Below, piece by piece: positions 1 through 30,907 of a stretch of DNA of 32,000 nt. Location: positions 1,140,001 to 1,172,000 of the forward strand of contig NC_015067.1 of the NCBI RefSeq assembly GCF_000196555.1, written 5' to 3'. Source of the stretch: Bifidobacterium longum subsp. longum JCM 1217 (GTDB lineage: Bacteria; Actinomycetota; Actinomycetes; Actinomycetales; Bifidobacteriaceae). A program made the translations under genes and the position numbers. The notes under the pieces were generated by a model. It searched no databases. It saw nothing but the letters and a program-made list of their open reading frames with translations, and was not told the origin of the DNA. Position 1 is the stretch's first letter; the number at the start of each line of letters is the position of its first letter.

Positions 1-1
1 C

Positions 2-4950: not shown

Positions 4951-4964
4951 CCCGTATGCGTCCC
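4951..4964 (-). promoter_or_regulatory. Copy of the recurrent GGGACGCATA-type motif upstream of the surface protein gene
   Basis: The minus strand reads gggacgcaTACGGG, about 110 nt upstream of the ATG at 4839, which has its own SD. Confidence 0.35.
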
Positions 4965-5084
4965 GGGCGCATCCGCCATGACATCGCGGACCGGGCGATC
5001 CCCGACCCGTTCCCATGGGCGTATGCGGACCATCATCGACATGAATGCGGCGTACAGGCCGCTCCCGCCGCCCGTACGCCTTCC

Positions 5085-5354
5085 CTAGTCGAGCACCCAA
5101 TCATCGTCGTCCGGGTCCGCGGCGACGTTCACCGTCGTATCCCCGTCCGCGTCCGACGATTGGTCGACGACGCCCACCTGCTTCGGTTTGGCCGGCAGCA
5201 GATCCGACCAGTCGACCGGCGTCGCGTCCGGCACGCCCGCCATGCGGGCCCGCACGTCCGCGTTCGGACCGCACCACCAGCATTGCACCATCTGCAGGCC
5301 GCGCCCCATGCGCTCGTACACGCCCCTGCCTTTCGGCATGCCGCCCGAATCCAT
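5085..5354 (-). CDS. Displaced C-terminal segment of the FtsK/SpoIIIE-like gene (different frame from 5101-8382)
   Basis: It translates to ...GGMPKGRGVYERMGRGLQMVQCWW...DPDDDDWVLD, which reads like real protein. The overlapping tail of the main ORF is Arg/Gly-rich nonsense. Removing one G from the G7 run at 5374-5380 joins the two frames. Confidence 0.6.
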   Translation of the reverse strand: MDSGGMPKGRGVYERMGRGLQMVQCWWCGPNADVRARMAGVPDATPVDWSDLLPAKPKQVGVVDQSSDADGDTTVNVAADPDDDDWVLD

Positions 5355-8300
5355 GGCCTGACGGATCAGCCGGCCCCCCCTCCCTCTCGTTCCGCGCGCT
5401 CACGTTCCCCCTCACGTCGCCCGCGCCGACGAACAGGCGGCCCATCTGGCTCTTCGCCAGCCCCGCGTCCGGCAAAGCGTCCATGCTCTCCGCCTTCATC
5501 ATCTGCGAGCCCAGGATCATCGTGATCCCCTGGGAGCGATGCTGGGTGAGGATATGGCTCACCGACGCGCCGATCCGGCGTTTCAGCCGGTCGCGCCACG
5601 CGTCCATCATGATCATGTTGTCCACATCCGGGTCGCCCGTCGGATTCCGTTTCACGCCCTTCGACAGTTCCAGGAGGCTCACGAACTCGTCCAGGAACAC
5701 GATGATGCGCGGCGGGCGGATGCCGGCCGGCAGCATGTCGATGTTCTCCGCCCCATGCTCCTTCTGCAATGCGAGCCGGCGCCGCCCCTCACGGTCGATC
5801 CAGTCGAGCATGGCCGCGCACTCGTCCAACCCGGTCGCGAACCCGGACAGTTTGCCTTTCACGGGCGCGAAATCGTTGCCCGACTTCACCGGATCGCCGA
5901 CGAACGCCTGCCAGCCGTGCAACAGGGCGGCGTTCACCAGGGTGACGGCCGCGCTCGTCTTGCCGCTCATCGTCTGCCCGGTGATCAGCAGATGCGCCGT
6001 GTCATGAGGGTCGAACAGGACCGTGCGCCCGTCGTCGCCGACCGCGAACGGCAGGCCCGTCGAATCCGGGTCCGCGCCCATGAGCCGCCAGTCCGCCATG
6101 ACCCGTTCCGGCAGCGGATCCATGCGTGACAGGAGGAGCGTGAGCGGCGCATCTCCCCTGACGCGGCGCGCGTACATGAACCCGCCGGTCGCGCGGAACG
6201 CGTCCAGACGGCCCATCGCGCCCTCCACGCCCAGGCCGGCCGGCAGGGCGAACGACGCCTTGACGAGCCGGCCGCCCCCGTCCTCGACGCGCAGCGTGGT
6301 CACGGGACGCCCGTCCGCGCCCGTCGCCTTGGACGCGGCCCACGCCTCGTCCAGGCGCAGCCTGATCATCCGGTCCATGTCCCGGCGGGAACGCCAGTCG
6401 CGCGCGTCCATGCTCGGCACGCCGCCCGCCCACAGGATCGCATGCCCCTGGTCGCGCCACTCCCACAGCGTCTCGTCCGCACCCATCGCGCTTTTCAGAC
6501 GTTCCTGCACGCGACGCAGATCCGACGCGGTCAGCCCGCCCTCCAGGCGGATCGGGATACGCCATGCGCTGTTCGCGCCCACGCCCAACTGGCTTGCGGC
6601 CCCGACCGTGGGCGGCGTCTTCAGGGCGAGCGCGCACGCGTGCGACACGATGACGCGCGCCAGGAGGCTGCGCGCCCTCGAATCGCCGGTCAGGGCGCGC
6701 AGCGTGTCCGGCATCCCCCGGTTGTCGTCCGTGTTGGGCGCGTGCACGAACTGGAGGAGCCGGGAGCGGGGCCGGTCTCCTTCCAGCCAGGGCAGGAAGT
6801 CCGCGATCGGGCTTTCCGAGAACGCGCCGCGCAGGTTCGAACGCATGTAGTCGGCGGCCGTGTACGCGCGGCCTATCGCCATCGCGTACGATGTGATCCG
6901 CCAGCCGGCCGGATCGGCGATGATTTCCGTGTTGTCGTGGAAGATCGTTTCGGGGGCGGGCAGTTTCACGGGTTCCAGGCCGCCCGACATGATCGATTTC
7001 AACCGTTTGTCCTCGCCGATCAGCCGCATGTAGCGGACCGGATCGTCATGGCGGCGGGTCAGCGTGTCGGACATGAGCGGCCGCATCGTCTCCACGTCCC
7101 ATTCATAGGAGTCCCAGTCCGCGTCCACGCTCACCCAGCCGTGCCCGCCGCCCGGATCCGCGGTCACCAGTATGTTCTCCGTGTTCATCCAGTCGCCGAA
7201 CGCGCCGGGCGCGGCCCCCTTCAGCCAGTCGCGGGAGATCATGTCCCAGTCGGCGTTCGACCCGTCGATGCGGAACGAGCGGACCGCGGGCCTGCCGTCC
7301 CGGGACGCGACGATCCTCACGTCCGTGACGCGTCCGGGGAACGCGCCGTACATGGCGCCCATGCGCGTCTCGTCGACCATGAGGCGCGCTTCGAGCATCG
7401 TCCGGTCGGCGAGCAGGTCCGCCGGGTCGGGCGCGTCCGCGGGGCAGACGGCGACCGTGACCCGCGTCCTGTCGCGCCCCATGAACGCGAAGCCCGCAAG
7501 CATGCCGTCCGCCTGGGTGACGGGCGTGAACGTCTTCATGGTCGAATCGTTCGCCCATTGGACGGCGTTCGACACGTCCAGTTGGAAGACGCGCGACCCG
7601 TCCGCGCCGACACGCGTGTCGTGCGCGCCGCCGGGCAGCGCGTCGAACGGCGGCTTGTTCAGGCCCGCGATCCACCGGCCGACCATGAGGCGGCTCTCAT
7701 AATCCGTATGGAAGCGTTTCCGGTTCGCCCGCCATGCGGGCCACATGGGGGCGGCGGCGCCCAGGCACATGAGCATGGGCATGGGCCACCAGACGCCCGT
7801 CCACGCGGATTGGAGGACGCCGAGAACGAGTCCCGCGCCCAGTCCCGTGAGTATCCACGGCAGCCGTTTCCTCGCCCATCTGACGCGCATGCGCCGCATG
7901 TTCGAATCCAGGCCGCGCACGGTGCAGGTCATGTCGCGGCGCTGCTGGCCGACGCCCATGACGGCCAGCCAGCAGGCCAGCATGTCCGCGCCCGCCATGA
8001 TCGGACGCCACGTGCCGGACGCGGACGATATCCACCCGTAGTCGAGGCATGCGATCGCCATGGCGGGCATCGCGTCCGCATACAGGGGAGACAGCCCGCC
8101 GTCGAGCCAACGGGAGGCGCGACGCCATGACGCCTCCATGCGCCGCTCCCTCTCGTCCCCGGGCGCCGGCCGGCCGTCCAGACCCTTGCCGGACAGGACG
8201 GGACGCCGGGCCGTCAGACGGGCCGCCAGCCAGCCCAGACACCAGACGGTCATGCCCGGCAGACGGAACGCGGTCAGCATGAGCGCGACGACGAGCGTGA

Positions 8301-8382
8301 GGACACGGACGAACGCGTGCGGGCTGGACGGTTCGTCCCGTTTCGTTTTCGGCCGCGACCGGCCGTTCCGACGGTATGCCAT
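5101..8382 (-). CDS. Membrane-anchored FtsK/SpoIIIE (TcpA/TraB-like) DNA translocase ATPase; the frame is apparently broken near the 3' end
   Basis: Several hydrophobic N-terminal segments. Walker A LLITGQTMSGKTS, Walker B PRIIVFLDEF, then HRSQGITMILGSQ. The last roughly 95 aa of this frame (after ...NEREGG) are low-complexity R/G and probably not genuine. Confidence 0.8.
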   Translation of the reverse strand: MAYRRNGRSRPKTKRDEPSSPHAFVRVLTLVVALMLTAFRLPGMTVWCLGWLAARLTARRPVLSGKGLDGRPAPGDERERRMEASWRRASRWLDGGLSPLYADAMPAMAIACLDYGWISSASGTWRPIMAGADMLACWLAVMGVGQQRRDMTCTVRGLDSNMRRMRVRWARKRLPWILTGLGAGLVLGVLQSAWTGVWWPMPMLMCLGAAAPMWPAWRANRKRFHTDYESRLMVGRWIAGLNKPPFDALPGGAHDTRVGADGSRVFQLDVSNAVQWANDSTMKTFTPVTQADGMLAGFAFMGRDRTRVTVAVCPADAPDPADLLADRTMLEARLMVDETRMGAMYGAFPGRVTDVRIVASRDGRPAVRSFRIDGSNADWDMISRDWLKGAAPGAFGDWMNTENILVTADPGGGHGWVSVDADWDSYEWDVETMRPLMSDTLTRRHDDPVRYMRLIGEDKRLKSIMSGGLEPVKLPAPETIFHDNTEIIADPAGWRITSYAMAIGRAYTAADYMRSNLRGAFSESPIADFLPWLEGDRPRSRLLQFVHAPNTDDNRGMPDTLRALTGDSRARSLLARVIVSHACALALKTPPTVGAASQLGVGANSAWRIPIRLEGGLTASDLRRVQERLKSAMGADETLWEWRDQGHAILWAGGVPSMDARDWRSRRDMDRMIRLRLDEAWAASKATGADGRPVTTLRVEDGGGRLVKASFALPAGLGVEGAMGRLDAFRATGGFMYARRVRGDAPLTLLLSRMDPLPERVMADWRLMGADPDSTGLPFAVGDDGRTVLFDPHDTAHLLITGQTMSGKTSAAVTLVNAALLHGWQAFVGDPVKSGNDFAPVKGKLSGFATGLDECAAMLDWIDREGRRRLALQKEHGAENIDMLPAGIRPPRIIVFLDEFVSLLELSKGVKRNPTGDPDVDNMIMMDAWRDRLKRRIGASVSHILTQHRSQGITMILGSQMMKAESMDALPDAGLAKSQMGRLFVGAGDVRGNVSARNEREGGPADPSGHGFGRHAERQGRVRAHGARPADGAMLVVRSERGRAGPHGGRAGRDAGRLVGSAAGQTEAGGRRRPIVGRGRGYDGERRRGPGRR

Positions 8383-8388: not shown

Positions 8389-8414
8389 CGCCTATGCCGG
8401 CCCGCGCATAGGCG
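8389..8414. promoter_or_regulatory. Divergent pair of the recurrent motif (inverted copies CGCCTATGCC / GCGCATAGGCG)
   Basis: The minus copy reads ccggcaTAGGCG + 6 nt + ATG(8382), with no SD. The plus copy, cgcgcaTAGGCG, lies 31 nt upstream of ATG 8446, which has SD ggaaaggag. Confidence 0.5.
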
Positions 8415-10154: not shown

Positions 10155-10901
10155 CTATGCGTCCCCGCGCAGCATGCGCGTGGATTCGGCGAGCATGAGG
10201 GCCGCGAGGCGTCCCGCGGCGCGGATGCGTTCCAGCCGGGCGTCCAGCGTCCCCTCCCCGTCCCCGTCATGGTCGAGGATGAGGCGGATCACGCGTTCCA
10301 CGTCGCGGGCGAGCGTGGAGTCCAGCCACGCGAACAGGGCGGCCCGTTCCGGCCGGCCTTCGGCCAGTCCGGGCACGTCGGGCACGATCGGCCCGTACGC
10401 CTTGCGCGCCGCCGCCCATTGGACGCGCAGCAGTTCCAGCGCGATCGGGCGGATGCGTTCCGTATGCCCGTCGGCGAGCAGGCCGGCGCGGGCGAACGTG
10501 AGCGTCAGCTGCGTGAACCCGTATCCGGCGACGTTGAACCCGTGTTCCGACCAGGACGGGTCGTACGGCCTGCGCTCCGCGAGCGTCACCTCCGGCACGG
10601 GCTCCGGCTCGGATGCGGCGGATTCCGGCGCCTGTTCCGGCACGGGTTCCGGCTTCGCCTCCGGATCCGTCGCGGGTTCCGTCCCGGATGCGACGGGTTC
10701 CGGCTTCGGCGTCGGATTCCACGGATCCTCGCCCGGACCCGAACCCATCCACCGGTCCATCGTCTCACGCCCCTGCGGCGTCTCCCACGGATCCGGCGCC
10801 GGGGCGGGCAGGCCCGCGCGAGGACGCGCCACGGCCTCCCCCTCCGGCCCCGAGGGCTTCGCCTCCGCGACGGGGGCGTCCAATCCGAACAGATCAAGCA
10901 T
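10155..10901 (-). CDS. Possible independently expressed in-frame product (MLDLFGLDAP...), nested in the 3' half of the nuclease ORF
   Basis: A motif copy, ggggacgcaTACCGG (10933-10947), and a perfect SD gggaaaggag lie 5 nt upstream of the internal ATG at 10901. This is the same arrangement seen at bona fide gene starts in this window. Confidence 0.35.
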   Translation of the reverse strand: MLDLFGLDAPVAEAKPSGPEGEAVARPRAGLPAPAPDPWETPQGRETMDRWMGSGPGEDPWNPTPKPEPVASGTEPATDPEAKPEPVPEQAPESAASEPEPVPEVTLAERRPYDPSWSEHGFNVAGYGFTQLTLTFARAGLLADGHTERIRPIALELLRVQWAAARKAYGPIVPDVPGLAEGRPERAALFAWLDSTLARDVERVIRLILDHDGDGEGTLDARLERIRAAGRLAALMLAESTRMLRGDA

Positions 10902-11861
10902 GACGGGCTCCTTTCCCACATGATTCCAACCGCCGGTATGCGTCCCCGCGAACCCGACGCGCGGATCGTCCGGACCGACGCTCGACAAGGCGTCCCGCCG
11001 GCCCGACGGTATGATCCGGGCCAGCGGGCAGGCGCGCGCCACCGGACACCAGGCGCACAGGCCCGACGGCCTCAACGGCAGGACGCCGTCCCCGTCCGCG
11101 CCCGTCGCGCGCACAATCCCGTCCCACGCATGATGGAAACGGGACACGGTGTCCGTGCACGCCGCATCCGACAGGTCCGCGGCCGCCCACGCATGATGCT
11201 CCACATACACGTCACGCGCCGCACGCACCTCGCACACGCCGTTCGCCTCCAGCATCAGCCGGTACAGGCGCAGCTGGTCCGCATGCCGCCGGCGGGCGTC
11301 ACGGTACTTCGGCGTGCCGCCCGTCTTCCAATCCACCACCGTGCCGTCCACGTCACGATAGTCCACGGCGCCACGCAACGGGATGCCGTCGACATCCGCC
11401 TCCAGATCCTGCTCCAACGCGGCCGGCTCCAACACGCGGCCCAACGCGTCCGTCAAAACGAACCCCGACAGCTTCGCCGCCGCGGCCCCCACCCAATCAT
11501 CCTGCGTGGCGGGCGAACCGTCCGGCATCGCCACGCCGGGCGGGATCGGCTCATCGCCCCAACCCCGCGCCCTCCACCGCTCGTACTCCACGCCGACGCC
11601 CCTGGCGCACAGGGCCCGCCAATCCGGGGCGACACGATCCGGCGTACGGCAGGCAAGCTCCAACGCGGCGTGCGCGATGCCGCCCAGGACGAGCGGACTG
11701 CCCCACAGACGGGGCTTCGGCATCAGCTTCTCCGCCGCCCAACGCGCCGGGCACGACATCCACTTGTCCAACGCGCTGAACGACGCGTGCGAGGGACGCG
11801 CCAGACGCGCACGGGCGACACCCGCCCCCATATCGAACGTCATCAACAGTTCATCACTCAT
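10155..11861 (-). CDS. Cas4/AddB-like PD-(D/E)XK nuclease with a 4-Cys (Fe-S type) signature, joined in frame to a Pro/Glu-rich linker and an unknown C-terminal domain
   Basis: Nuclease-like strings: SALDKWMSCPARW (N-terminal Cys), GAVDYRDVDGTVVDWKTG (D...D-x-K), ADQLRLY (QxxxY), and CAWCPVARAC (C-x2-C-x5-C). The start is set at MSDELL (ATG 11861) because the 90 nt further upstream contain a terminator and a promoter motif. Confidence 0.7.
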   Translation of the reverse strand: MSDELLMTFDMGAGVARARLARPSHASFSALDKWMSCPARWAAEKLMPKPRLWGSPLVLGGIAHAALELACRTPDRVAPDWRALCARGVGVEYERWRARGWGDEPIPPGVAMPDGSPATQDDWVGAAAAKLSGFVLTDALGRVLEPAALEQDLEADVDGIPLRGAVDYRDVDGTVVDWKTGGTPKYRDARRRHADQLRLYRLMLEANGVCEVRAARDVYVEHHAWAAADLSDAACTDTVSRFHHAWDGIVRATGADGDGVLPLRPSGLCAWCPVARACPLARIIPSGRRDALSSVGPDDPRVGFAGTHTGGWNHVGKEPVMLDLFGLDAPVAEAKPSGPEGEAVARPRAGLPAPAPDPWETPQGRETMDRWMGSGPGEDPWNPTPKPEPVASGTEPATDPEAKPEPVPEQAPESAASEPEPVPEVTLAERRPYDPSWSEHGFNVAGYGFTQLTLTFARAGLLADGHTERIRPIALELLRVQWAAARKAYGPIVPDVPGLAEGRPERAALFAWLDSTLARDVERVIRLILDHDGDGEGTLDARLERIRAAGRLAALMLAESTRMLRGDA

Positions 11862-11866: not shown

Positions 11867-11882
11867 CGCTTATGCGTCCCCC
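11867..11882 (-). promoter_or_regulatory. Recurrent motif in -10 position for a leaderless start
   Basis: The minus strand reads gggggacgcaTAAGCG + 5 nt + ATG(11861). No SD. Confidence 0.5.
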
Positions 11883-11883
11883 G

Positions 11884-11911
11884 AAAAAAAACAGGCCGGG
11901 GCCCGCCGGCC
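11884..11911 (-). terminator. Rho-independent terminator (minus strand)
   Basis: The minus strand reads GGCCGG-cgggcc-CCGGCC followed by TG and T8 (plus-strand A8 at 11884-11891). It lies downstream of the 11964-12281 gene. Confidence 0.6.
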
Positions 11912-11963: not shown

Positions 11964-12281
11964 TCAGGCGGCGAGCCTCCACGCATGGTCCAGGCACTCC
12001 CACAAGGGGCAGTACCGGCGCGACGCCCACTCGAACCCCCTGAACGGGGGGACGGTCAGCCGCGGGTCGATCCGCGCGAGCTCCCTGTCGCACAACGGGA
12101 CGCCCAGACGGCGCAGCCACGGCAGACGCGCCATCGCCGCCCTCACCATGCGCGCGTCATACGAGCCGTCCGCCGACGGCCGGGGCAGCGCATGATGTTC
12201 GGACAGGAGCGGGAGGAACGATTCCGGCACGTCCAAAAGACGCGCCGTCTGGCCCGCGGCCAGCATGCCCGGCATCACCAT
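11964..12281 (-). CDS. Small protein with a putative N-terminal excisionase/MerR-like helix-turn-helix
   Basis: MLAAGQTARLLDVPESFLPLLSEHHALP resembles Xis/AlpA-type HTH openings. Its ATG overlaps the upstream stop (ATGA at 12279-12283). Confidence 0.5.
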   Translation of the reverse strand: MVMPGMLAAGQTARLLDVPESFLPLLSEHHALPRPSADGSYDARMVRAAMARLPWLRRLGVPLCDRELARIDPRLTVPPFRGFEWASRRYCPLWECLDHAWRLAA

Positions 12282-12850: not shown

Positions 12851-12958
12851 GCTATTGCTCCTTCAATCCAGGGACGGATATCGTCACGCCGCCCCTATGC
12901 GCGTGCGACGCATCATGCCACGCCCCGTCGAACAGACGGCGGCGCGGCCGGCGGGCGT

Positions 12959-13140: not shown

Positions 13141-13180
13141 AAGGGGAGGGATCGTTTTTCCTTGCAAAAAACCGGGTTTC

Positions 13181-13195
13181 GGGGGCGCATAGCCG
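13181..13195 (+). promoter_or_regulatory. Recurrent motif in -10 position for a leaderless start
   Basis: gggggcgcaTAGCCG + 6 nt + ATG(13202). No SD. The Walker A motif starts at residue 10, which confirms the start codon. Confidence 0.5.
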
Positions 13196-13993: not shown

Positions 13994-14400
13994 GCGGCGT
14001 CCAGGCGGCGCGGGACGCGAACCTGATACGCGCGGAGGCCTTGGTCGCGGTGCGCGCGAAGGCGGAGCGCGGGGATTTCACGCATGCCCTGTCCGACCTG
14101 CTGCGTGACGCGTTGGGATCGAGGCCGCTGCTGCGCCTGCACATCTGGCGTGTCGAACAGGCCGCGTTCGACAATCGGACGGCGACATGCAAACGGCATG
14201 CGCGCATCGCGGCCGGATGGTGCGGGGTGGACGGGGCGCGCGCCGGATCCCTGACGCTCGCCTGGCTGTTGGACGAGCGGACGGGCGGCGCGAGGCTCGC
14301 CGCATGGCTGCTCGCCATCAGCCTGGACATGCGTGACGCGCATGGCGGGCACGCGTTCCGCCTGTCCGGCCCGGACCCGTTCGCGCATGTACGCTCCTAG
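13966..14400 (+). CDS. Hypothetical protein (144 aa)
   Basis: SD ggaggggggg at 13951-13960, 5 nt before ATG 13966. It overlaps the 3' end of the parA-like gene by 28 nt. Confidence 0.5.
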   Translation: MAAMVPDAMSGVQAARDANLIRAEALVAVRAKAERGDFTHALSDLLRDALGSRPLLRLHIWRVEQAAFDNRTATCKRHARIAAGWCGVDGARAGSLTLAWLLDERTGGARLAAWLLAISLDMRDAHGGHAFRLSGPDPFAHVRS

Positions 14401-15347
14401 TCGCTGATCAGGCGGGCGGCCATGGTGCCGAGCTCCCTGATCACGTCGAATTCGGTGACGTCGTTGGCGGCGGCGACCCGTTGGACGGCGCGTTTCAGGT
14501 CGGGCTGCCAGACGCGCCGCCGGCTGGTCTGGGTCGGCCAGTAGAGGCGGACGGCGTCATGCATGCCGGTCCACGGATGCGGGTCGTGTTCGAGGAGTGG
14601 CGCCATGTCCTGCGGGATGGGGGCGAGCATGAGCATGCACGCGGTGTTCGCGTCGAGCCTGTCGAGCGTATGGTCCCACAGGCCCGCGTCGCGTGCGATC
14701 CGGATCGCGTCCTCGCATGTGCCGTCGGTCACGGCGCGCATCATCTGCTCCCTGATCCGGCCGACGGGGCGCGGCACCCTGAGCGTCGGATCGCGTTCGA
14801 ACGGGGCGGACGCCATGCTGCCGCCGGCCACGCTCGTGCTCGACGCGTCGTCGTACACGGGATTATGCCCGTCCTCGGTCTCGAACGCGCTCGCGCTGGG
14901 CGTCCTGGTTTTGAGCACGCGTTTCGCGTTCCACTGGGCGAGCGGCAGGCTGATGCGCCGAACCCATCCGCAGAAGCTGGTGGGTTCGGTCGGATCCCAC
15001 AGGCCGTTCCAGTTCCATTGCGTGCTTTTCGATTCGACGGGCACGCCCGTGATCTTCTCGAACACGCGGACCGTGACCCAGCGGGTCATGGTGTCCCGCT
15101 GCTCCTCGACCGGGTAGAGGCGTCGCATCTCGCCTTCCACGAGGTCGGTCTGCTGCATCCACGCGGCGGCCAGCATCCGTTCCCGGGATCCGAATTCGAC
15201 GGCCCTGTCGGTCCAGTCGATGCCGCGCACATGCCGGTCGAGCTCCTCCCTGGCGGCCGGATCGTCGGCCAGCCTGTGTTTCGGCTTCCATTCGCCCATC
15301 ATGCGTCCGATCGAGGTCGCGATCCCGTGCCGCGCATCCGCCCCCAT
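14397..15347 (-). CDS. Hypothetical protein (316 aa), no family recognised
   Basis: SD gaaaggagg lies 3 nt before ATG 15347. Only this 3' part of the 1500-aa track ORF reads like protein; the rest is antisense to two well-supported plus-strand genes. Confidence 0.6.
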   Translation of the reverse strand: MGADARHGIATSIGRMMGEWKPKHRLADDPAAREELDRHVRGIDWTDRAVEFGSRERMLAAAWMQQTDLVEGEMRRLYPVEEQRDTMTRWVTVRVFEKITGVPVESKSTQWNWNGLWDPTEPTSFCGWVRRISLPLAQWNAKRVLKTRTPSASAFETEDGHNPVYDDASSTSVAGGSMASAPFERDPTLRVPRPVGRIREQMMRAVTDGTCEDAIRIARDAGLWDHTLDRLDANTACMLMLAPIPQDMAPLLEHDPHPWTGMHDAVRLYWPTQTSRRRVWQPDLKRAVQRVAAANDVTEFDVIRELGTMAARLISD

Positions 15348-15364: not shown

Positions 15365-15390
15365 CGCGTATGCGTTCCGGGGCATAGGGG
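15365..15390. promoter_or_regulatory. Divergent pair of the recurrent motif
   Basis: The minus copy, ggaacgcaTACGCG, precedes SD and ATG 15347. The plus copy reads ggggcaTAGGGG + 5 nt + ATG 15396. Confidence 0.5.
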
Positions 15391-15395: not shown

Positions 15396-17765
15396 ATGTG
15401 GTTCGAACTGGTTCCCGCGCCGCGCGCGGATGAGACGGATGACGATGTGAGGTTCCAGCGTGACGCGAAGGCCATGGCCGACGCGATCGGCTTGTCGTCG
15501 CGTCCCGGATGGCTGGACTGGTGGAGGCATGACGACGGGTGCCGGCTCGTGGCGGCCGGCGAACGCCGGTGGGTGGAGGTGTCCGACCGGTACGGGCAGA
15601 AGGCGGGCGAACTGGTCGCCCGTGCGGCGCACGCGTCGATTCGCGCGTGCGGGCGGCCGGACGTGCTGGACCGTCCCCGCGTGTGGGCGCACGCGTTCGT
15701 CCCGATCAGCGCGTCCCTGGCGCGTACGGCGCGCGACGGGGAGCCGAGCATGGAGCGTCCCCGCCTGGATGCGGGCGAGGACACGGTGATCGTGGTGAAC
15801 GTGCGCCGGCTCGGCTGGGTCGAGTCGGGCCGCCTGTCGGATTGGCTGGGCGACGAGTACAACATGCAGGCGGACACGTCGAAGCTCAGGGGCGAGGGGT
15901 TGGGCGCGTGCCGTGTGATGGCGGGCGGCGCGGATCCGCGCACGGCGATGGATCAGGCGAAGCGGGCGGCGAACGCGTTGAACCTGGGCCTGGTGCCGGG
16001 CCTGTCCGCGCATGTGAGCCGTCCCGGCCTGGGGTTCCTCCTGTGCATGCTCCTCCTGACGGCCGTGTCCGTGCCTGCCGTCCTGCTCCTGCCCGCCGCG
16101 CCCGCCTGGCTCATGACCGTCCCCGCGTTCATGCTCGCCGGGACGGCGGGGGCGGTCGTGCGTTGGCGTCTGCGCCATGATCCCGTGAACGATCTGGCTC
16201 AGAGGCCCCGCCATTACTGGTGGCGTGCGCGCAGACGGTGGGCGCGCGCCGCGGATTTGAAGACCCGGATGGCGGGCGACGATCAGAACGCGGACGGGCC
16301 GGGCCGGAAGCGGCGCGTCCACGCGTACGCGTTCCAACGGTCCACGCTGCCGTTGCCGTGCGGCGCGCTGGCCGCCCTGGCGGTCCCGTCGGGACGGCGC
16401 AACGCGTCGGTGAGCGCGCTGACGGTCATGCCCGACCAGTTGGACGGGTGCGACGGGCCCATACTGGGCGTGGACGCGGAACGGCGCACGGTGCGCATGA
16501 GCGTGGACGCGTTGTACGGCGGCGTGTTCCTCATGGGCGAGCCTGGCGGCGGGAAAAGCAACATGATGCATGGGGTGGCCGGGTGGATGGGCGGCCGGCA
16601 TCGGACGGGCGACGTGCTCGTCGACTTCGAATCGAAGGGCGTGGACGCGCAGCCCGTGCTGAAGCGTCTCATCCCGGGCCTGCTCGTCGTGGACGTGAAC
16701 GATCCGGGCACGCCGATGATCGACCTGCTGGGCGCCGGGTCGAACGTGGAGCGTGCGGGCCGGTTCGCGGATCTCATGCAGGCCGCGTTGGGCGTCCAGC
16801 AGATCGGCCCCCAGTCGCGCATCCAGTTGCGTGACGCGACGTTCGTCGCCCTGGAGGGTCTGGCGGCGGCGGATCTGGGGGCGCGGTGCAACGCGTGCTC
16901 CGTTCCCGTGCCGGATGGCTGGGTCGAATATGCGGCGCGCCTTTTGGGACGTAACGGGGTGATGGATGCGCGCATGCTGGGCCGTGCGAGCGTGTTCGCG
17001 TGCGACACGCGTGGGGTGCGGGACGCGGTGGAGCGATTGCATGGCGGCGTGTCGGACAAGGGGACGCCGAAGATCCGCGACGGGGAGCTTGCCGGCCTGC
17101 TGCGCGCGCCCATGAACAAGATGGACGTGCTCGCGTCCGCGGGCCGCGTGTTCGCGCCGTCCCGGCGCGTCCTGTCCTGGGCGTCCGTGATCCGCCGGTC
17201 CGCGCATGCGGGCGACGTGCGCATCATGGTCAACCTGGGCGCCGCGATCCGGACGGGCGCGGACGGCCGGCATGCGGATCTGCCCGACGGGGCGCGCCGT
17301 CTGATCGGCGCGCTCCTGTTCCGCGGCCTGAAGGACGAGATCGTCGCCTCCTGCGCGGGCTGGCAGGCGCGGGGGCGTGCGGCGCGCATCCTGGTCGACG
17401 AGCTGACGGACGTGCTGGGCGCGGACGGCGACACGGGTGGCGGCAACGCGGACATCCTCGCCTGGCTGCGTGAGAAGGGGCGCGCGTACGGCGTGCAGCT
17501 GGTGGCGGGCACGCAGAACGCGGTCCAGTTGGAGGGCGGGCTGCTCGCCTCGGTGACCGGCCTGATGACGGTCGGCACGTTCGTGTTGCGCGCGGATCTG
17601 ACGGCGGGCCCGTCCGCCGTGGCGGTCGGGTCGGATCCGGCGACGGTGCGCGGCCTGCCGTTGCACACGGTGCTGGTGCGCACGGTCGGCCCTCCCCCGG
17701 ACATGGCGGGCCTGCCTCCCATGATCCTGTCCGTCCCCCATTTCGACGCGGGCGCGCCCGTGTGA
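15396..17765 (+). CDS. TraD/TraG/VirD4-like type IV coupling protein ATPase
   Basis: Two hydrophobic segments (LGFLLCMLLLTAVSVPAVLLL and LMTVPAFMLAGTAGAVV). Walker A FLMGEPGGGKSN, Walker B ARILVDELTD, then REKGRAYGVQLVAGTQNAVQL, which fits the R..G....Q..QL pattern of T4CPs. Confidence 0.75.
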   Translation: MWFELVPAPRADETDDDVRFQRDAKAMADAIGLSSRPGWLDWWRHDDGCRLVAAGERRWVEVSDRYGQKAGELVARAAHASIRACGRPDVLDRPRVWAHAFVPISASLARTARDGEPSMERPRLDAGEDTVIVVNVRRLGWVESGRLSDWLGDEYNMQADTSKLRGEGLGACRVMAGGADPRTAMDQAKRAANALNLGLVPGLSAHVSRPGLGFLLCMLLLTAVSVPAVLLLPAAPAWLMTVPAFMLAGTAGAVVRWRLRHDPVNDLAQRPRHYWWRARRRWARAADLKTRMAGDDQNADGPGRKRRVHAYAFQRSTLPLPCGALAALAVPSGRRNASVSALTVMPDQLDGCDGPILGVDAERRTVRMSVDALYGGVFLMGEPGGGKSNMMHGVAGWMGGRHRTGDVLVDFESKGVDAQPVLKRLIPGLLVVDVNDPGTPMIDLLGAGSNVERAGRFADLMQAALGVQQIGPQSRIQLRDATFVALEGLAAADLGARCNACSVPVPDGWVEYAARLLGRNGVMDARMLGRASVFACDTRGVRDAVERLHGGVSDKGTPKIRDGELAGLLRAPMNKMDVLASAGRVFAPSRRVLSWASVIRRSAHAGDVRIMVNLGAAIRTGADGRHADLPDGARRLIGALLFRGLKDEIVASCAGWQARGRAARILVDELTDVLGADGDTGGGNADILAWLREKGRAYGVQLVAGTQNAVQLEGGLLASVTGLMTVGTFVLRADLTAGPSAVAVGSDPATVRGLPLHTVLVRTVGPPPDMAGLPPMILSVPHFDAGAPV

Positions 17766-17807
17766 CGCATACCCGGGTCGCAAACCGTTGTTTTGTGTGG
17801 AAAGGAC

Positions 17808-21493: not shown

Positions 21494-21526
21494 CTTGTAT
21501 GCGTCCCCCGGCCCCGCGCATAGCCC
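21494..21526. promoter_or_regulatory. Divergent pair of the recurrent motif
   Basis: The minus copy, gggggacgcaTACAAG (21494-21509), faces gene 21458. The plus copy reads gcgcaTAGCCC (21516-26) + 7 nt + ATG 21534. Confidence 0.5.
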
Positions 21527-23755: not shown

Positions 23756-23775
23756 AGGCTATGCGCGCATAGGCG
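23756..23775. promoter_or_regulatory. Overlapping divergent motif copies that form the perfect palindrome CTATGCGCGCATAG
   Basis: Start codons 23749 (-) and 23782 (+) are only 32 nt apart. Each has TAG(C/G)C(T/G) exactly 6 nt upstream. The palindrome spans 23759-23772. Confidence 0.55.
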
Positions 23776-23781: not shown

Positions 23782-25161
23782 ATGCCGTTCAATCCTTTCG
23801 CCGCCGGTCCCGCCGAACCCGTCGCGGAGCCGTCGCCGGCGGAGCCGGCCGATGGGGGCGCGACGCGGGAATCCGACGTCGACGACGGCTGGTGGGATTT
23901 CGGGAGCGGACCGGATGCGGCGGACGCGACGCCGGACCCCGATCCGGCGGACGCCGCGGCGGACGACGGCCGGCGGGATGCGGACGGGAGGGGCGGGCGA
24001 TCCGAAGACGCGCCCGATCCCATGCCGGACGACGGGGCGGACGACGACTGGTGGGGCATGGCCTCCGATGCGGGAGGGGACGACGCGCCCCCGGCCCGGA
24101 CGGCGCGGGACCCCGCCGGACCCGCCGCCCATGCGGGCGACGACACGGATGCGGACGACGACTGGTGGGGCATGGCCGGCGGGGAGGCCATGCCGGGCCC
24201 GCCGGCCGGGATCCCGGCGCGCACGGGGACGGACGAGACCCCCGGCATGGACGCGGACGACGACTGGTGGGGCATGGCCGGCGGGGACGGGCCGCGATCC
24301 GACGACGCCGATCCGACGCCGCGGCTCGTCAGCGTGCCCGGCACCAGCGTGCGCATCCCCGCGGACTTCGACTGGGGCACCGACACCCCCGCGGCCGGGC
24401 CGGCCGACGGCGTGCGGGAGCCCGCCCCGGCCCCCGCACGCCGGCCCGGCCCGTCGCGCCGCATCCTCATCGCCGCCACGGCCGCCATCCTCGCCCTCGC
24501 CCTCCTGGCGGGCGGCGTCGTCGCGGCGCGCACGCTCATCGCCTCCGACCGGCAGCGGAAGGCCCACGACGAGGCGTGCGCGACGCTCACCGCGCAGGCC
24601 GGAACATGGGACGGGCTCGCACGGCAGGCGAAGACGCTCGGCGTGAAACCCGGCGACGGGCCCGACACGTCCTGCAAGGCGGACACGGACACGCTCAGGG
24701 CCCGGGCCCGCACGCTCAAGGCCCGAGCCCGCACCCTCGCCAGGGCGAACCGGAACGCGCTGGACGCCGCATGGGAAAACCTGTCCGGCCGGATCGCGGC
24801 AAGCCGCAAGAACCATCCGAAGGCCGGCGGGCAGACGCTCGCCGCGCTCGAAACGCTCGCCGAGACCGCGCCCGAGGACGCGGACGGCCTGGCCGCGAAG
24901 GAACGCGAATTCGAACGGCTCGACAAGCAGGCCGGACGGGAGCAGCAGCAGGCCGAACAGGAGGAGAAGGCGGAGGCCGAGGCGCGACAGGAGGCCGAAC
25001 GGGAGGCCGAGGCGCGACGGGAGGCCGAGGCGCAGGACACGCCCCAGACCGCCGCCCCCACGCCGGCGCCCATGCCGCAGACCACCCCCACGCCGGCCCC
25101 GCAGCCCACGCCGACACCCACACCCACACCGGCGCCCGGCAACGCGGACGCCAGCATGTGA
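23782..25161 (+). CDS. Single-pass membrane protein: acidic N-terminal region with four DD(D/G)WW(G/D) repeats, one TM, a coiled coil, and a Pro/Thr-rich tail
   Basis: Repeats are DDGWWDFG and DDDWWGMA(S/G) x3. The 24-nt DNA repeat gacgacgactggtggggcatggcc occurs three times. TM is ILIAATAAILALALLAGGVVAA. The tail reads EQQQAEQEEKAEAEARQEAEREAEARREAEA followed by TPTPAPQPTPTPTPTPAP. Confidence 0.7.
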   Translation: MPFNPFAAGPAEPVAEPSPAEPADGGATRESDVDDGWWDFGSGPDAADATPDPDPADAAADDGRRDADGRGGRSEDAPDPMPDDGADDDWWGMASDAGGDDAPPARTARDPAGPAAHAGDDTDADDDWWGMAGGEAMPGPPAGIPARTGTDETPGMDADDDWWGMAGGDGPRSDDADPTPRLVSVPGTSVRIPADFDWGTDTPAAGPADGVREPAPAPARRPGPSRRILIAATAAILALALLAGGVVAARTLIASDRQRKAHDEACATLTAQAGTWDGLARQAKTLGVKPGDGPDTSCKADTDTLRARARTLKARARTLARANRNALDAAWENLSGRIAASRKNHPKAGGQTLAALETLAETAPEDADGLAAKEREFERLDKQAGREQQQAEQEEKAEAEARQEAEREAEARREAEAQDTPQTAAPTPAPMPQTTPTPAPQPTPTPTPTPAPGNADASM

Positions 25162-25171
25162 CGCATACCCG
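25160..25171 (+). promoter_or_regulatory. Recurrent motif in -10 position for a leaderless start
   Basis: gacgcaTACCCG + 5 nt + ATG(25177). It overlaps the stop codon of the upstream gene. Confidence 0.45.
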
Positions 25172-25176: not shown

Positions 25177-25437
25177 ATGAACGACGCATACGAACGACTC
25201 ACCATCGGCCAGGCGCAGACCCTGGCCCGCATCATCGACGGCCTGCGCGACCACGGGTTCGACCCCGACGGGCAGGGCATCCACACGCCCAACCTGCACG
25301 TCGAACCCGGGGACGGGACACGCGTCAACTGGTGGCTCGACGGCGACACGGCGTTCGCCAACGGCAGCATGGACGCGCAGGGGCACGGCGTATGGTGGAC
25401 GCGCCGCGCCTACGCGCCCACCCTGCGACGCTCCTAA
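25177..25437 (+). CDS. Small hypothetical protein (86 aa)
   Basis: An ORF with a motif-positioned start. Its stop overlaps the stop of the convergent VirB4-like gene. Confidence 0.5.
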   Translation: MNDAYERLTIGQAQTLARIIDGLRDHGFDPDGQGIHTPNLHVEPGDGTRVNWWLDGDTAFANGSMDAQGHGVWWTRRAYAPTLRRS

Positions 25438-29582: not shown

Positions 29583-29588
29583 GCGGCG

Positions 29589-29601
29589 CGCCTATGCGCG
29601 C
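29589..29601 (-). promoter_or_regulatory. Recurrent motif in -10 position for a leaderless start of the VirB4-like gene
   Basis: The minus strand reads gcgcgcaTAGGCG + 6 nt + ATG(29582). It sits in the 31-nt gap after the upstream stop (29614). Confidence 0.5.
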
Positions 29602-29613
29602 GTCGCATGACGG

Positions 29614-30825
29614 TCAGCCGAGCGTGGCGAGGATCGCGCCCAGACCGTCCGGATCCGTCGGATCCGAGCACAGGCGCGCCAGCAGGCCGGCCGCCTCGCG
29701 CATCGCGCGCCGCGCATCCGGCGACCCCGCAGCCAGCAGCCGCAATTGGCGTGGCGTGTAGCCGCCGTGCCGTCGGCGCCGGTAGAGCACGTCCATCGCA
29801 TGCGCGTCCGCGTAGGCGAGCAGCATGTCCACCTGCGCGGACGACAGGCCGTCGCCGAGGCGGGCGAGCGTGGCCGCGCCCGAACCACGTTCGAGGATCA
29901 TGTCGACGCGGCGGGGCGTGAACATCTGCCTTTCGACGCTGAGGGAGAGGCGTTCCAGCAGGCCGGCCGACCCGTGCTCCGCCCAATGGTCGTACAGGGT
30001 TTCGGTCAGGCGTTCGCGGCGCGGATCGTCGTCGGGCATCCAGCCGGACAGGTAGGAGCCGACCATGTCCGGGTCGCCGTGTTCGAGCAGGAGGCGGATG
30101 TCCTTCTCCGTGAGCGTGGGACGGTCCGAACCGTCGCGTGCCGCGGCGTCCGGCGCGTACAGGCTCCAGCACGCCCGGTCGGCCAGGCCGGATTCGGCGA
30201 TCCGGCGCAACAGGGCCGCGTCCGGCCGGCCGTACCGGAGCACGAGCCATGCGGCGTCCGGGCTTCCGGTTTCGAACAGGCGGACGGCGCGGTCGGCGAT
30301 CCAGCCGGGGGCACGGTATTCGAGTTTCGTCAGGACCCCCGGGTCCGTCTCCTTGCCGAACACGTGCAGACGGTCGTCGGGCGTATGGTCCACCAGTTCG
30401 AGGCGCACCGTCGGATCCGGATCGTCCAGGAACGAATCCAGCCGGCCGTCCGTCAGCATGCCCATATGCTTCAACGCGTCCAGACGGATTTTCGGATCCG
30501 GGTCCGCGAGCACGAGGCCGGGTTCATGCGCGGCGAGCGCGCGGCGTATGGCCTTCGGCAGCGGTTCGCCCGCCTCCGCCATGCGTATCGCGTCACGGGC
30601 CGTGTCGCGTCCCATGCCGGTGACGGTCAGGCGGCGCGCGCGCCAGCCTCCGGCCGCATCGTCCACGGCGAAGCAGCCGGTGCGGGCGGCCGCGCGCGCC
30701 GCGTTCGCGCTCGCCGCCTCGAACGAGTTCGGCACGGTCCCGCCCCATCGTTCGCGGGTCTCCGGCTCGCCGTAGTGGGCCATCAGCAGGTTCCATTGGC
30801 TTTCCGACAGTTTCCTAAGGCTCAT
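29614..30825 (-). CDS. HEAT/LRV-like repeat protein, function unknown
   Basis: Repeated (D/S)PDxx(V/I)Rxx(L/A) units: DPDPKIRLDAL, DPDPTVRLELV, SPDAAWLVL, GDPDMVGSYL, SPDARRAMREAA. SD gggaga lies before the ATG. Confidence 0.6.
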   Translation of the reverse strand: MSLRKLSESQWNLLMAHYGEPETRERWGGTVPNSFEAASANAARAAARTGCFAVDDAAGGWRARRLTVTGMGRDTARDAIRMAEAGEPLPKAIRRALAAHEPGLVLADPDPKIRLDALKHMGMLTDGRLDSFLDDPDPTVRLELVDHTPDDRLHVFGKETDPGVLTKLEYRAPGWIADRAVRLFETGSPDAAWLVLRYGRPDAALLRRIAESGLADRACWSLYAPDAAARDGSDRPTLTEKDIRLLLEHGDPDMVGSYLSGWMPDDDPRRERLTETLYDHWAEHGSAGLLERLSLSVERQMFTPRRVDMILERGSGAATLARLGDGLSSAQVDMLLAYADAHAMDVLYRRRRHGGYTPRQLRLLAAGSPDARRAMREAAGLLARLCSDPTDPDGLGAILATLG

Positions 30826-30907
30826 CGTGTTCTCCCGTCATCGCGCCCCGGCATCGTCGCCGCGACGCATGCGTCCCCCCCCCGGCGGACGTTTTTTTCA
30901 GCCCGAT

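Follow-up and report, generated by a model that had tools for sequence, protein, structure and literature searches.

Leaderless promoters of Actinobacteria and Deinococcus carry a TANNNT -10 box about 6 nt before the AUG. Private sigma factors that read a promoter consensus of their own include T4 gp55, SPO1 gp28 and gp33/34, SigN of B. subtilis pBS32 and the clostridial TcdR group; the late promoters read by T4 gp55 consist of TATAAATA with no -35 element. ECF (group 4) sigma factors are small proteins (∼180–200 aa) that recognise a short -10 element, have no T(-7) pocket and require a -35 element; an example of such a -10 element is CGTATA, used by B. subtilis sigmaW. The -10 consensus of B. 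subtilis sigmaE and sigmaK is CATA---T(A), with T at -7 and a -35 element present.

The window analysed here, a 32,000 nt stretch of the Bifidobacterium longum subsp. longum JCM 1217 chromosome, belongs to a conjugative element of the type IV secretion class. The element has a G+C content of 70% and encodes a VirB4-like AAA_10 ATPase, an FtsK/SpoIIIE-like ATPase, a lysozyme/CHAP hydrolase, ParA, sortase and pilin genes, and a PIF1/AAA_30/UvrD_C relaxase-helicase fragment. This content is held in common with other type IV secretion conjugative elements of Actinobacteria (VirB4/coupling protein/relaxase), whereas a uniform private promoter accompanied by a sigma-like gene falls outside their usual description.

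The motif described below resembles the leaderless promoters of Actinobacteria and Deinococcus in placing T-A at -12/-11 from the A of the ATG, with no Shine-Dalgarno (SD) sequence and with ATG as the only start codon. Host phylum is also shared with the actinobacterial examples, and leaderless transcription start sites (TSSs) have been documented in Bifidobacterium (PMC4782308). The element motif differs in having no T at -7, variable bases after the TA, an upstream GACGC block and a last base that can be G, and in being restricted to one mobile-element family rather than genome-wide. As with the private sigma factors of phages and plasmids, one short non-host consensus marks the genes of an element that also encodes a divergent sigma-like protein, and the signal is, as in T4 late promoters, a lone -10-region block with the -35 absent. 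Here, however, the carrier is a conjugative element of Bifidobacteriaceae with one third of its genes probably leaderless, and the candidate factor, characterised through its sequence and structural models, resembles no sigma family detectably in sequence. CATA at -14 to -11 recalls the B. subtilis sigmaE/sigmaK promoters, but the lack of both T at -7 and a -35 element sets the motif apart from them, and relatedness of the factors is unsupported.

A conserved, oriented motif before every transcription unit

A preliminary description of this DNA had listed 18 copies of a promoter-like motif, each facing the adjacent downstream gene. Every copy was confirmed in position and strand (Table 1). The region from 4.8 to 30.9 kb (4840–30900) contains 18 transcription units, and all of them (18/18) have one copy aimed at them. 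Compared with dinucleotide-preserving shuffles of the window, CGCATA was found 26 times (7.85 ± 2.9 expected), GACGCATR 11 times (3.75 by chance) and SGCATAGSSS 9 times (1.1 predicted); none of 100 shuffles reached the observed count in any of the three cases. A check of density within coding sequence found ∼19 extra GCATA pentamers inside genes, in either orientation and near chance level.

Table 1. Motif copies and the candidate factor gene in the window
Feature	Position	Strand	Context
GACGCATA	4955..4962	-	116 nt upstream of ATG 4839, CAP-domain surface protein of 973 aa; leadered with SD GAAAGGA
(cc)GGCATAG	8393..8397	-	last A 11 nt from ATG 8382, FtsK/SpoIIIE-like ATPase; leaderless geometry
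CGCATAG	8405..8410	+	36 nt upstream of ATG 8446, 424-aa orphan; SD GGAAAGGAG; diverges from 8393 copy
GACGCATA	10156..10163	-	overlaps upstream ORF stop; 47 nt from ATG 10109, 97-aa protein; leadered
GACGCATA	10937..10944	-	within ORF 10155-11861; then SD GGAAAGGAG and in-frame ATG 10901
GACGCATA	11871..11878	-	directly past terminator-like site with T-run; last A 10 nt from ATG 11861, PD-(D/E)XK nuclease gene; leaderless
CGCATAG	12896..12901	-	46 nt from ATG 12850, 189-aa protein, operon with 105-aa gene 11964-12281; SD GAAGGAG
CGCATAG	13186..13191	+	last A 11 nt from ATG 13202, ParA-like, operon with 144-aa gene 13966-14400; leaderless
316-aa orphan	14397..15347	-	candidate divergent sigma-like factor; residues ∼22-150 helical, predicted sigma region 2-like fold
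AACGCATA	15369..15376	-	22 nt from ATG 15347, sigma-like gene; SD GAAAGGAGG
(gg)GGCATAG	15382..15386	+	last A 10 nt from ATG 15396, 789-aa membrane P-loop ATPase; leaderless
GACGCATA	17764..17771	+	overlaps ATPase stop; 37 nt from ATG 17808, beta-clamp-like protein; SD GGAAAGGA
GACGCATA	21498..21505	-	40 nt from ATG 21458, 91-aa gene 21183-21458, then DUF2637 gene 20515-21186; SD GAAAGGGGA
CGCATAG	21517..21522	+	last A 12 nt from ATG 21534, lysozyme/CHAP hydrolase; leaderless
CGCATAG	23760..23765	-	last A 11 nt from ATG 23749, 307-aa lipoprotein-like; half of palindrome CTATGCGCGCATAG
CGCATAG	23766..23771	+	last A 11 nt from ATG 23782, 459-aa protein; second half of palindrome CTATGCGCGCATAG
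GACGCATA	25160..25167	+	overlaps upstream stop; last A 10 nt from ATG 25177, 86-aa protein; leaderless
CGCATAG	29593..29598	-	last A 11 nt from ATG 29582, VirB4-like ATPase with intein; leaderless
variant GACGCATG	30868..30875	-	in palindrome GACGCATGCGTC 30864-30875; ∼43 nt from ATG 30825, 403-aa protein; SD GGGAGAA

The TA-initiated hexamer singled out earlier is not the conserved unit. The four bases after the TA vary, while the block just upstream, CGCAT(A/G) preceded by GA, is conserved as described. Across the family the core is (G)(A)CGCAT(A/G), its last base sometimes being G; in the logo of family sites C-G-C-A-T-A is invariant or nearly so, position -7 reads A2 C8 G24 T4 (T in only 4/38 sites) and no conserved signal appears at -35. 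The label ‘degenerate’ given to the 30868 copy was wrong, as this is a full GACGCATG, a variant that recurs at leaderless spacing in relatives. Copy 21494–21509(-) is real, and its target is the 91-aa gene, which was missing from the earlier gene list, is called in public copies and overlaps the start of the DUF2637 gene. The arrangement of copy 10933–10947(-) with its SD and ATG 10901 is kept at the same place in relatives, which suggests that a promoter within ORF 10155–11861(-) drives expression of a C-terminal product.

Genes with leaderless and leadered geometry

Nine starts (8382, 11861, 13202, 15396, 21534, 23749, 23782, 25177 and 29582) have the last A of GCATA 10–12 nt ahead of the first base of the ATG, and none of them (0/9) has an SD sequence. 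The spacing reported previously, 5–7 nt after the hexamer, is equivalent to these distances of 10, 11 or 12 nt, and the remaining copies do stand farther out, 22–116 nt upstream, with GAAAGGAG-type SDs. The comparison was extended to six diverged loci, from B. myosotis, B. felsineum, B. sp. SO1 and Bombiscardovia coagulans (45% G+C) together with two metagenomic ones, which with the window give 142 called genes. GCATA ends 9–12 nt before the start in 40 of these genes, with a spike at 10–11 nt (35/142), and GACGCATG occupies the leaderless spacing in six more, for a total of 46/142 across the seven loci. All 40 genes of the GCATA class start with ATG, and only one has an SD-like sequence, versus 67 of the 102 other genes. 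The motif stands 13–130 nt upstream in a further 34 genes, where SD-type sites are visible. The spike, the exclusive use of ATG and the depletion of SD sequences together argue for the leaderless reading of these genes. Leaderless initiation is known in the genus, accounting for 15% of TSSs in B. pseudolongum (PMC4782308).

Restriction to the element family

Motif and geometry persist in diverged relatives whose hosts are Bombiscardovia or Bifidobacterium species other than B. longum, over a range of 45–73% G+C, and the motif precedes orthologous and non-orthologous genes alike in elements sharing 42–70% protein identity. Elements of B. canis, B. cuniculi, B. castoris and B. animalis likewise have GCATA at a distance of 11 nt from the ATG of the ATPase gene or of an adjacent gene. 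A distant branch of the family (L022) lacks GCATA; eight exact copies of CCGCNCCATG occur instead, all on the coding strand. Seven of them precede six genes with SDs, at 35–115 nt, and the eighth stands directly past a gene end.

Host genes present a different picture. The motif stands at leaderless spacing before none of the 64 genes of a B. longum megaplasmid, where almost all genes have SD sites and several -10 boxes of the TATACT type are visible upstream, nor before any of ∼13 genes in the flanking chromosome. In B. pseudolongum, promoters identified by TSS mapping consist of a -35 element plus TATAAT (PMC4782308). The earlier suggestion of a non-housekeeping arrangement is therefore upheld: the motif has neither a -35 element nor T at -7, and so does not represent a housekeeping-type promoter, and it is missing from the megaplasmid and flanking chromosomal genes.

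A candidate specificity factor

Two orphan proteins had been put forward as possible readers of the motif. For 8446–9720, searches of Pfam, NCBIfam and PHROGs gave no match. The other, the unannotated 316-aa product of 14397–15347(-), has a homologue in 7/7 loci examined, and its top structural matches are sigma factors. In its full-length AlphaFold model (pLDDT 85.6) the best PDB matches were SigA, sigma32, WhiG, sigma28 and sigmaE, and phage sigma factors made up the top four BFVD matches. The N-domain model (pLDDT 91.6, pTM 0.86) matched sigma region 2 in 27 of 33 PDB hits (target-normalised TM 0.48–0.65), the best being ECF sigma factors, in particular E. coli sigmaE region 2 on the -10 element (PDB 4lup, 2map, 5or5). 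Sigma factors lead three fold searches with this protein, in which the E-values, all 0.4–10, are non-significant.

The helix SFCGWVRRISLPLAQWNAKRVL, with its F..W..RI motif, pairs with region 2.3/2.4 of sigmaE. The best local hhalign alignment joins SFCGWxRRLs..iAk.NarRVL to sigmaE DSAFYTWLYRIAVNTAKNYL, and under relaxed settings the alignment stays colinear as far as region 4.2; the hhalign P values are 0.06–0.1, with a probability of about 1%. Sequence searches of Pfam, NCBIfam, PHROGs and PDB returned no sigma match, and a set of 1.84 billion proteins, searched with a profile, yielded only 36 family members and no known sigma. Unlike ECF sigma factors, the family proteins are 290–320 aa long, have 25 extra residues inserted into the N-domain, match neither Sigma70_r2 nor r4 of Pfam and carry a 135-residue C-terminal part without clear relation to region 4; no clear sigma region 4 domain was seen in the C-terminal half. 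The L022 homologue is about 25% identical, and its region 2.3/2.4-like helix differs strongly in this branch with the other motif. Such co-variation does not single out the 316-aa protein, since all element proteins diverge together.

Promoter model and alternatives

We consider it somewhat probable that the motif is a -35-less promoter private to the element, read by an element-encoded divergent sigma-like factor and giving leaderless mRNAs for about one third of the genes. As the core promoter of the conjugative element in B. longum and its Bifidobacteriaceae relatives, (G)(A)CGCAT(A/G) would span roughly -18 to -11, with transcription starting ∼11 nt past its last base. Where the ATG coincides with the TSS, as proposed for the nine window genes and about one third of the family, the mRNA would begin with AUG and be translated without leader or SD; where the ATG is farther away, the same promoter would yield a leader of 11–105 nt bearing a strong GAAAGGAG site. 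Because the signal is unlike host promoters, private to the element family and altered in the distant branch, its most likely reader is host core RNA polymerase with a specificity subunit encoded by the element. The structural models make the 316-aa protein the best candidate for that subunit, and the motif ahead of its own gene may provide positive feedback. A candidate under the control of its own motif requires a separate trigger, and none was found. Against a sigma-like reader, the closest structural matches are of ECF type and normally -35-dependent, and there is no -35 here. A last motif base that can be G also fits poorly with simple flipping of A(-11) of the kind known for housekeeping sigma.

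The motif could instead be read by host sigmaA, whether on its own, via an unusual extended -10, or helped by a non-sigma activator from the element, the 316-aa protein then being that activator or unrelated. A normal -10 hexamer begins with TA, as found here at -12/-11, actinobacterial leaderless promoters of sigmaA have exactly this spacing to the ATG, housekeeping sigma factors are known to use extended -10 promoters lacking a -35, and no element protein searched has significant sequence evidence of being a sigma factor. We nevertheless regard this reading as unlikely, given that a housekeeping sigma has its second key base in the T at -7, which is so rare here, that the CGC conserved at -16 to -14 mismatches the TGn of an extended -10, and that the final A can be replaced by G in conserved sites. 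Host-type replicons moreover have TATACT-like boxes without the motif (megaplasmid; PMC4782308), and the L022 branch has another motif with no TA. Recognition by a host alternative (ECF-type) sigma of Bifidobacteriaceae, exploited by the element, is very improbable: the -10-like core with its CG-rich block loosely resembles ECF -10 elements and the motif is limited to Bifidobacteriaceae hosts, but the -35 element that ECF sigmas need is missing, the motif precedes none of ∼77 host or megaplasmid genes examined, and L022 carries a different one.

Inverted pairs and palindromes, namely CTATGCGCGCATAG, an exact palindrome that bridges starts 23749 and 23782 as first described (23756–23775), and GACGCATGCGTC (30864–30875), are typical of dimeric regulators, and a single signal at all units would permit a global on/off switch of transfer genes. 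The motif might accordingly be mainly an operator for an element repressor or activator, such as the 105-aa HTH-like protein 11964–12281, overlapping real but weak and unrecognised -10/-35 elements. This is quite doubtful, as most copies are single and asymmetric, every copy is aimed at its gene, and the halves of paired copies lie 0, 8 or 15 nt apart, which fits back-to-back promoters and not one operator. The ATG spacing, constant to ±1 nt in 46 genes, is needed by a leaderless -10 region and superfluous for an operator, and the logo has no further conserved promoter signal nearby. A role in RNA or DNA transfer instead of transcription initiation (a processing site, translation signal or nick site) deserves hardly any weight. 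Copies directly before start codons could host an RNA signal, but half of the copies are 22–116 nt away with a normal SD between, 18 copies on both strands are unlike a transfer origin, and the motif comes with no structure or partner for base pairing.

Several smaller features of the locus were also recorded. GC3 phase analysis agrees with the gene calls, including 14397–15347 on the minus strand, and this candidate gene is itself preceded by the motif. All seven relatives examined carry a beta-clamp gene, which adjoins the ATPase gene in six.

Element Organization and Gene Content

The window, at 70% G+C and flanked by chromosomal DNA of 50–61% G+C, is, as predicted from its domain content, the core of a type IV secretion conjugative element. 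The components expected of such an actinobacterial element (ICE or plasmid) were found, namely a VirB4-type ATPase, a coupling-protein-type ATPase, a relaxase and a cell-wall hydrolase, recognized through AAA_10, FtsK_SpoIIIE, PIF1/AAA_30/UvrD_C_2 and Phage_lysozyme2+CHAP domains, respectively. No integrase was seen in the DNA examined. GC3 phase analysis and public gene calls together fixed the positions of the genes, 14397-15347(-) and 21183-21458(-) among them. Megablast searches with 24 kb of the sequence returned no match among phage records and, among plasmids, an IS607/TnpB insertion as the sole match. An identical 789-aa ATPase occurs on 2.34-Mb chromosomes and in many contigs from gut metagenomes, and the contig collection indexes it in 208 blocks, indicating that the element is common in B. 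longum; strains that carry it include those of CP049767.1 and CP137052.1.

Table. Genes and insertions of the element (window-relative coordinates)
Feature	Position	Strand	Remarks
Sortase and surface proteins	left side of window		
FtsK/SpoIIIE-like ATPase	5101-8382	(-)	
Orphan protein, candidate sigma-like factor	14397-15347	(-)	316 aa
Second membrane P-loop ATPase	15396-17765	(+)	789 aa
Beta sliding-clamp homologue	17808-18884	(+)	
IS607-family TnpB insertion	18968-20269	(-)	OrfB_IS605/Cas12f-like; 62% G+C
Small gene	21183-21458	(-)	91 aa; public gene calls
Lysozyme/CHAP hydrolase	21534-22829	(+)	
VirB4-like AAA_10 ATPase	25434-29582	(-)	intein-like insertion
PIF1/AAA_30/UvrD_C helicase fragment	30908-32000	(-)	kind typical of relaxases
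DUF2637 protein, ParA-like protein, PD-(D/E)XK nuclease			

Several insertions were observed within the element. The TnpB insertion lies between the clamp gene and the DUF2637 operon, is 85–87% identical to copies on Bifidobacterium plasmids and holds no copy of the motif. The VirB4-like ATPase measures 1382 aa versus 839 aa in its orthologue from a relative's locus (L011); the ∼540 extra residues (∼26570-28190(-)) follow the Walker A motif GSTGSGKS, end in THN|T, and carry a LAGLIDADG-like stretch, LGAWLADGSKTGGGF, together with a weak Hom_end match, so the segment is intein-like, with a putative homing endonuclease. In public copies of the element (L019, L020, L021 6542-9918) the PIF1/AAA_30/UvrD_C relaxase-helicase gene is cut to 345–351 aa by IS21 (rve + IstB), and CP049767.1 has the element in two chromosomal parts, at ∼0.19 Mb and ∼1.12 Mb. 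Self-transmission has probably been lost, at least in these copies. The element also extends leftward beyond the window (window 1-1827; a further copy, L016, 13013-22922), with genes for a sortase, a 1700-aa Listeria-Bacteroides-repeat surface protein, a SpaA-type pilin, a 227-aa protein and a Prim-Pol/DUF5906 primase, and with a GCATA copy ∼80 nt upstream of the pilin gene.

Distribution of the Motif within the Window

All 18 copies of the motif, (G)(A)CGCAT(A/G), that the preliminary description had listed between 4951 and 30883 were found in place, each facing the next start codon. Motif strings exceeded their expectation under dinucleotide-preserving shuffles (n = 100), none of which reached the observed counts: CGCATA occurred 26 times against 7.85 expected (sd 2.9), GACGCATR 11 times against 3.75, and SGCATAGSSS 9 times against 1.1. 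About half of the 38 GCATA pentamers (∼19) fall within genes, in either orientation and near chance level, and the remaining ∼19 are intergenic or at gene ends; 17 of these, together with the GACGCATG copy at 30868, constitute the 18 oriented copies. Between 4840 and 30900 there are 18 transcription units, with one oriented copy each.

At the nine starts proposed to be leaderless, the last A of GCATA was confirmed to lie 10, 11 or 12 nt before the A of the ATG, and a Shine-Dalgarno (SD) sequence was absent from all nine. The remaining copies stand, also as described, upstream (22–116 nt) of genes carrying an GAAAGGAG-type SD. Some individual assignments required revision. The copy at 21494-21509 has as its real target the 91-aa gene, which was missing from the earlier list; that at 10933-10947 lies within ORF 10155-11861, before an SD and an in-frame ATG at 10901; and that at 30868, previously regarded as degenerate, is a full GACGCATG within the palindrome GACGCATGCGTC.

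The arrangement nested in the PD-(D/E)XK nuclease gene (full motif, SD and in-frame ATG, 10899-10944(-)) recurs at gene nucleotides 920-963 in four of five orthologues (GGGGACGCATA/G ... GGAAAGGAG ... ATG), with the same placement in the relatives' loci L010, L011 and L013, which suggests a nested promoter for separate expression of the C-terminal 248-aa part. Two copies outside the original list were also noted: CGCATA at 5022-5027(-) (region 5014-5027), just 6 nt upstream of the ATG of a 44-codon ORF in the 4840-5100 spacer, and GCATA at 630-634(+), 33 nt before an ATG at 667 and upstream of the sortase gene. G+C-rich stems followed by T-runs at 11882-11900 and 13160-13180 (ggccccggcctgttttttttc; aaaaaaccgggtttc), directly upstream of motif copies, look like terminators insulating successive units.

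Conservation and Leaderless Geometry in Related Elements

A search for homologues of the 789-aa ATPase returned none outside the Bifidobacteriaceae (distant relatives elsewhere came from a genome scan). Six relatives' loci were fetched, from B. myosotis (70% ATPase protein identity), B. felsineum (65%), B. sp. SO1 (56%), two metagenomic elements (∼48–49%) and Bombiscardovia coagulans (42%), and the motif was present upstream of genes in all six, including the AT-rich locus of the last (45% G+C).

Across the window and these six loci, GCATA ends 9–12 nt before the start of 40 of the 142 called genes, 35 of them at 10–11 nt, and GACGCATG has the same spacing at six further genes. The geometry originally proposed for nine window genes, a hexamer ending 5–7 nt before the ATG, thus extends to 40 (plus six variant) genes in seven loci. 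The two other features expected of leaderless promoters, an AUG start and no SD, were likewise found: every one of the 40 begins with ATG (versus 91 of 102 other genes) and a single one has an SD-like sequence (versus 67 of 102). A further 34 genes have GCATA 13–130 nt upstream, many with visible upstream SD sites. Start assignments are supported by the N-terminal MW of the ATPase, which is kept in five of seven loci. The genome scan, performed with the ATPase alignment, extended the set to B. canis, B. cuniculi and B. castoris, whose ATPase ATG follows GCATA by 11 nt, and to B. animalis, where the 11-nt spacing is seen at the gene next to the ATPase. The distant ATPase relatives in Kocuria, Mobiluncus and Agrococcus did not have the motif above chance.

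Anatomy of the Signal

Alignment of 38 leaderless and 34 leadered sites revealed an invariant or near-invariant C(-16) G C A T A(-11), with G favoured at -10 and a preceding GA mainly in the leadered class (A at -17 in 23 of 34). Positions above 0.35 bit were confined to -18..-7 in the leaderless class, plus the start codon at +1/+2, and the leadered class had at most one marginal extra position (0.46 bit at -25). No information was present from -40 to -26 in either set of sites, i.e. no -35 element. All conserved information therefore resides in one block around -10, the single-block pattern of -35-less promoters of the T4 late or extended -10 type. A TA-initiated hexamer had been proposed as the conserved unit; this view was abandoned because the conserved block ends in TA, with A or G as its last base (A to G in six conserved sites), and position -7 lacks T (A2 C8 G24 T4 among 38 sites). 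The TANNNT hexamer with conserved T at -7 of the actinobacterial leaderless type was accordingly not seen. A sigma-54 type signal (GG-N10-GC) was ruled out by its absence, and to our knowledge promoters of this type are not expected in the phylum. A T7-like promoter starting right after ATA was also rejected, as it would leave SD-less leaders of 9–11 nt and the polymerase gene is absent.

A Candidate Element-encoded Factor

Searches of the window's proteins (Pfam, NCBIfam, PHROGs), with all orphans at lax thresholds, gave no sigma, RNA polymerase or HTH match, in agreement with the initial failure to recognize a sigma factor. Surface proteins and P-loop ATPases account for the large orphans; the idea that one of them might be a single-subunit or two-barrel RNA polymerase was rejected, since the 789-aa and 1093-aa products are P-loop ATPases with Walker A/B motifs and no DxDGD-type motif occurs in plausible context.

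The 316-aa protein, one of two candidates put forward at the outset, has a gene in all seven loci. Its family is tiny, with 22 clusters among 5.8 billion proteins, and a profile search of 1.84 billion representatives found 36 proteins, all members of the family. The protein and 41 family members had no match in Pfam, NCBIfam or PHROGs at E up to 10, including Sigma70 regions 2 and 4; sequence-profile searches of the PDB with 21- and 41-member alignments found no sigma factor and only chance-level matches (UCH-L1 and a TetR); and a scan of the genome collection with the sigma-like alignment gave no confirmed match.

The AlphaFold model (mean pLDDT 85.6) consists of two helical domains joined by a disordered linker. 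Foldseek comparison of the full-length model with the PDB returned mostly sigma factors (SigA, sigma32, WhiG, sigma28, sigmaE) at E-values of 0.4–10, and among predicted viral structures the top four matches were phage sigma factors. TM-scores against whole sigma factors (PDB, BFVD) were 0.15–0.3, low values that are expected if domain orientation differs. Modelled alone, the N-domain (residues 22-150; pLDDT 91.6, pTM 0.86) matched sigma region 2 in 27 of 33 PDB hits (sigmaE, CnrH, AlgU, SigE, sigmaA, sigmaS, WhiG), with target-normalised TM of 0.48–0.65 and weak E-values (1.5–10); 8b3z_D, for example, aligned with an rmsd of 4.1 A over 89 columns. Profile-profile alignment (hhalign) of the family with RpoE was not significant (P 0.06–0.1), a weak test because the RpoE alignment, seeded with E. 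coli RpoE, held only near-identical sequences. The best local, non-significant alignment paired the family's most conserved helix, SFCGWxRRLs..iAk.NarRVL, with DSAFYTWLYRIAVNTAKNYL of sigmaE, the helix that reads the -10 element, and a relaxed alignment, also non-significant, was colinear through sigmaE region 4.2. Taken together, the fold comparisons give moderate support to the 316-aa protein as a predicted, very divergent sigma-like factor, one with no counterpart in sequence profiles.

Host DNA and a Divergent Element Branch

None of the 64 annotated genes in 50 kb of a B. longum megaplasmid has GCATA at leaderless spacing; SD sequences are nearly universal there and TATACT-type -10 boxes occur in several intergenic regions. 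The ∼13 chromosomal genes flanking the element likewise have no motif copy at leaderless spacing. In B. pseudolongum, Cappable-seq identified promoters with -35 and TATAAT boxes and mapped 15% of transcription starts to the start codon itself (PMC4782308), a pattern from which leaderless translation appears normal for the host and the motif promoter does not. Only one motif-like cluster was seen in host DNA: three GGCATA(G/C) within 50 nt in a chromosomal methyltransferase/hflX-like intergenic region (L020 1354-1511), ∼40–90 nt upstream of the methyltransferase start. The cluster may have arisen by chance or may be a motif-related host site.

A distant branch (L022; Logan ERR11534995, 9061-17277) was found through a homologue 25% identical to the 316-aa protein. 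The GCATA motif and leaderless genes are absent from this branch; CCGCNCCATG occurs eight times without mismatch and always on the coding strand: six SD-bearing genes have seven of these copies 35–115 nt upstream, and the remaining copy lies just beyond the end of a gene. The promoter code would thus change with element lineage, and the most conserved helix of the 316-aa family is heavily substituted in the homologue from this branch.

Proposed Mechanism and Alternatives

Recognition of the motif by host sigmaA, alone or together with an activator, is made less likely by the lack of T(-7), by the A/G at the last motif base, by the host-type replicons without the motif and by the different motif of L022. 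The idea that the motif is an operator for a regulator is weakened as well: copies are asymmetric and oriented, their spacing to 46 start codons is held to ±1 nt, and inverted pairs have 0, 8 or 15 nt between halves, a variability more in keeping with back-to-back promoters than with one operator bound by a dimer. The lack of both a -35 element and host sites is evidence against a host ECF sigma, and action at the RNA level or as a transfer origin does not fit, clashing with the leadered class and with copy number.

In the mechanism we propose, host core polymerase carrying the element's sigma-like protein would recognise (G)(A)CGCAT(A/G), placed at ∼-18 to -11, with no contact at -35 and would start transcription ∼11 nt downstream of the motif. 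An ATG at the start position would yield a leaderless transcript, and an ATG farther downstream a short leader with a strong SD. We infer promoter function and start sites from geometry and conservation, and the identity of the factor from fold similarity and co-occurrence. The 316-aa gene itself has the motif upstream, at leadered spacing in the window and at leaderless spacing in five relatives, which would imply positive feedback and a separate trigger.

Phages and a few plasmids are well known to encode private sigma factors that have their own promoters, and Actinobacteria to use leaderless promoters. The literature searched on Bifidobacterium conjugative elements gave no description of this promoter, and searches for the motif string returned unrelated primer sequences only. 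The combination suggested here was not found described in that literature: a conjugative element with one -35-less consensus lacking T(-7) at every unit, a leaderless configuration in about a third of genes conserved from 45 to 73% G+C, and a putative sigma-like family that sequence methods do not detect. Bifidobacterium longum ranks among the major gut commensals and serves as a probiotic chassis. If true, an own promoter code and specificity factor would explain expression or silencing of a 70% G+C element in a 60% G+C host, the joint switching-on of transfer genes, and how leaderless mRNAs spare the need for host-matched ribosome-binding sites; further gains would be a sigma-like family missed by sequence methods and a compact orthogonal promoter/factor pair for Bifidobacterium genetics.

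The beta sliding-clamp homologue, which may serve element replication, occurs in all seven loci, in six of them beside the gene for the 789-aa ATPase. Late transcription in phage T4 relies on gp55 acting together with the sliding clamp gp45; a T4-like link of the clamp to transcription is speculative here. A self-contained phage-like programme, in which a new sigma-like clade reads an 8-bp -35-less promoter and initiation is coupled to the element's beta-clamp, so that genes fire only on replicating or just-transferred DNA and leaderless mRNAs are ready for translation in a new host, strikes us as highly improbable. In L011 one small gene separates the clamp and ATPase genes, and the element has Prim-Pol genes at other sites (L013, L014, L016).
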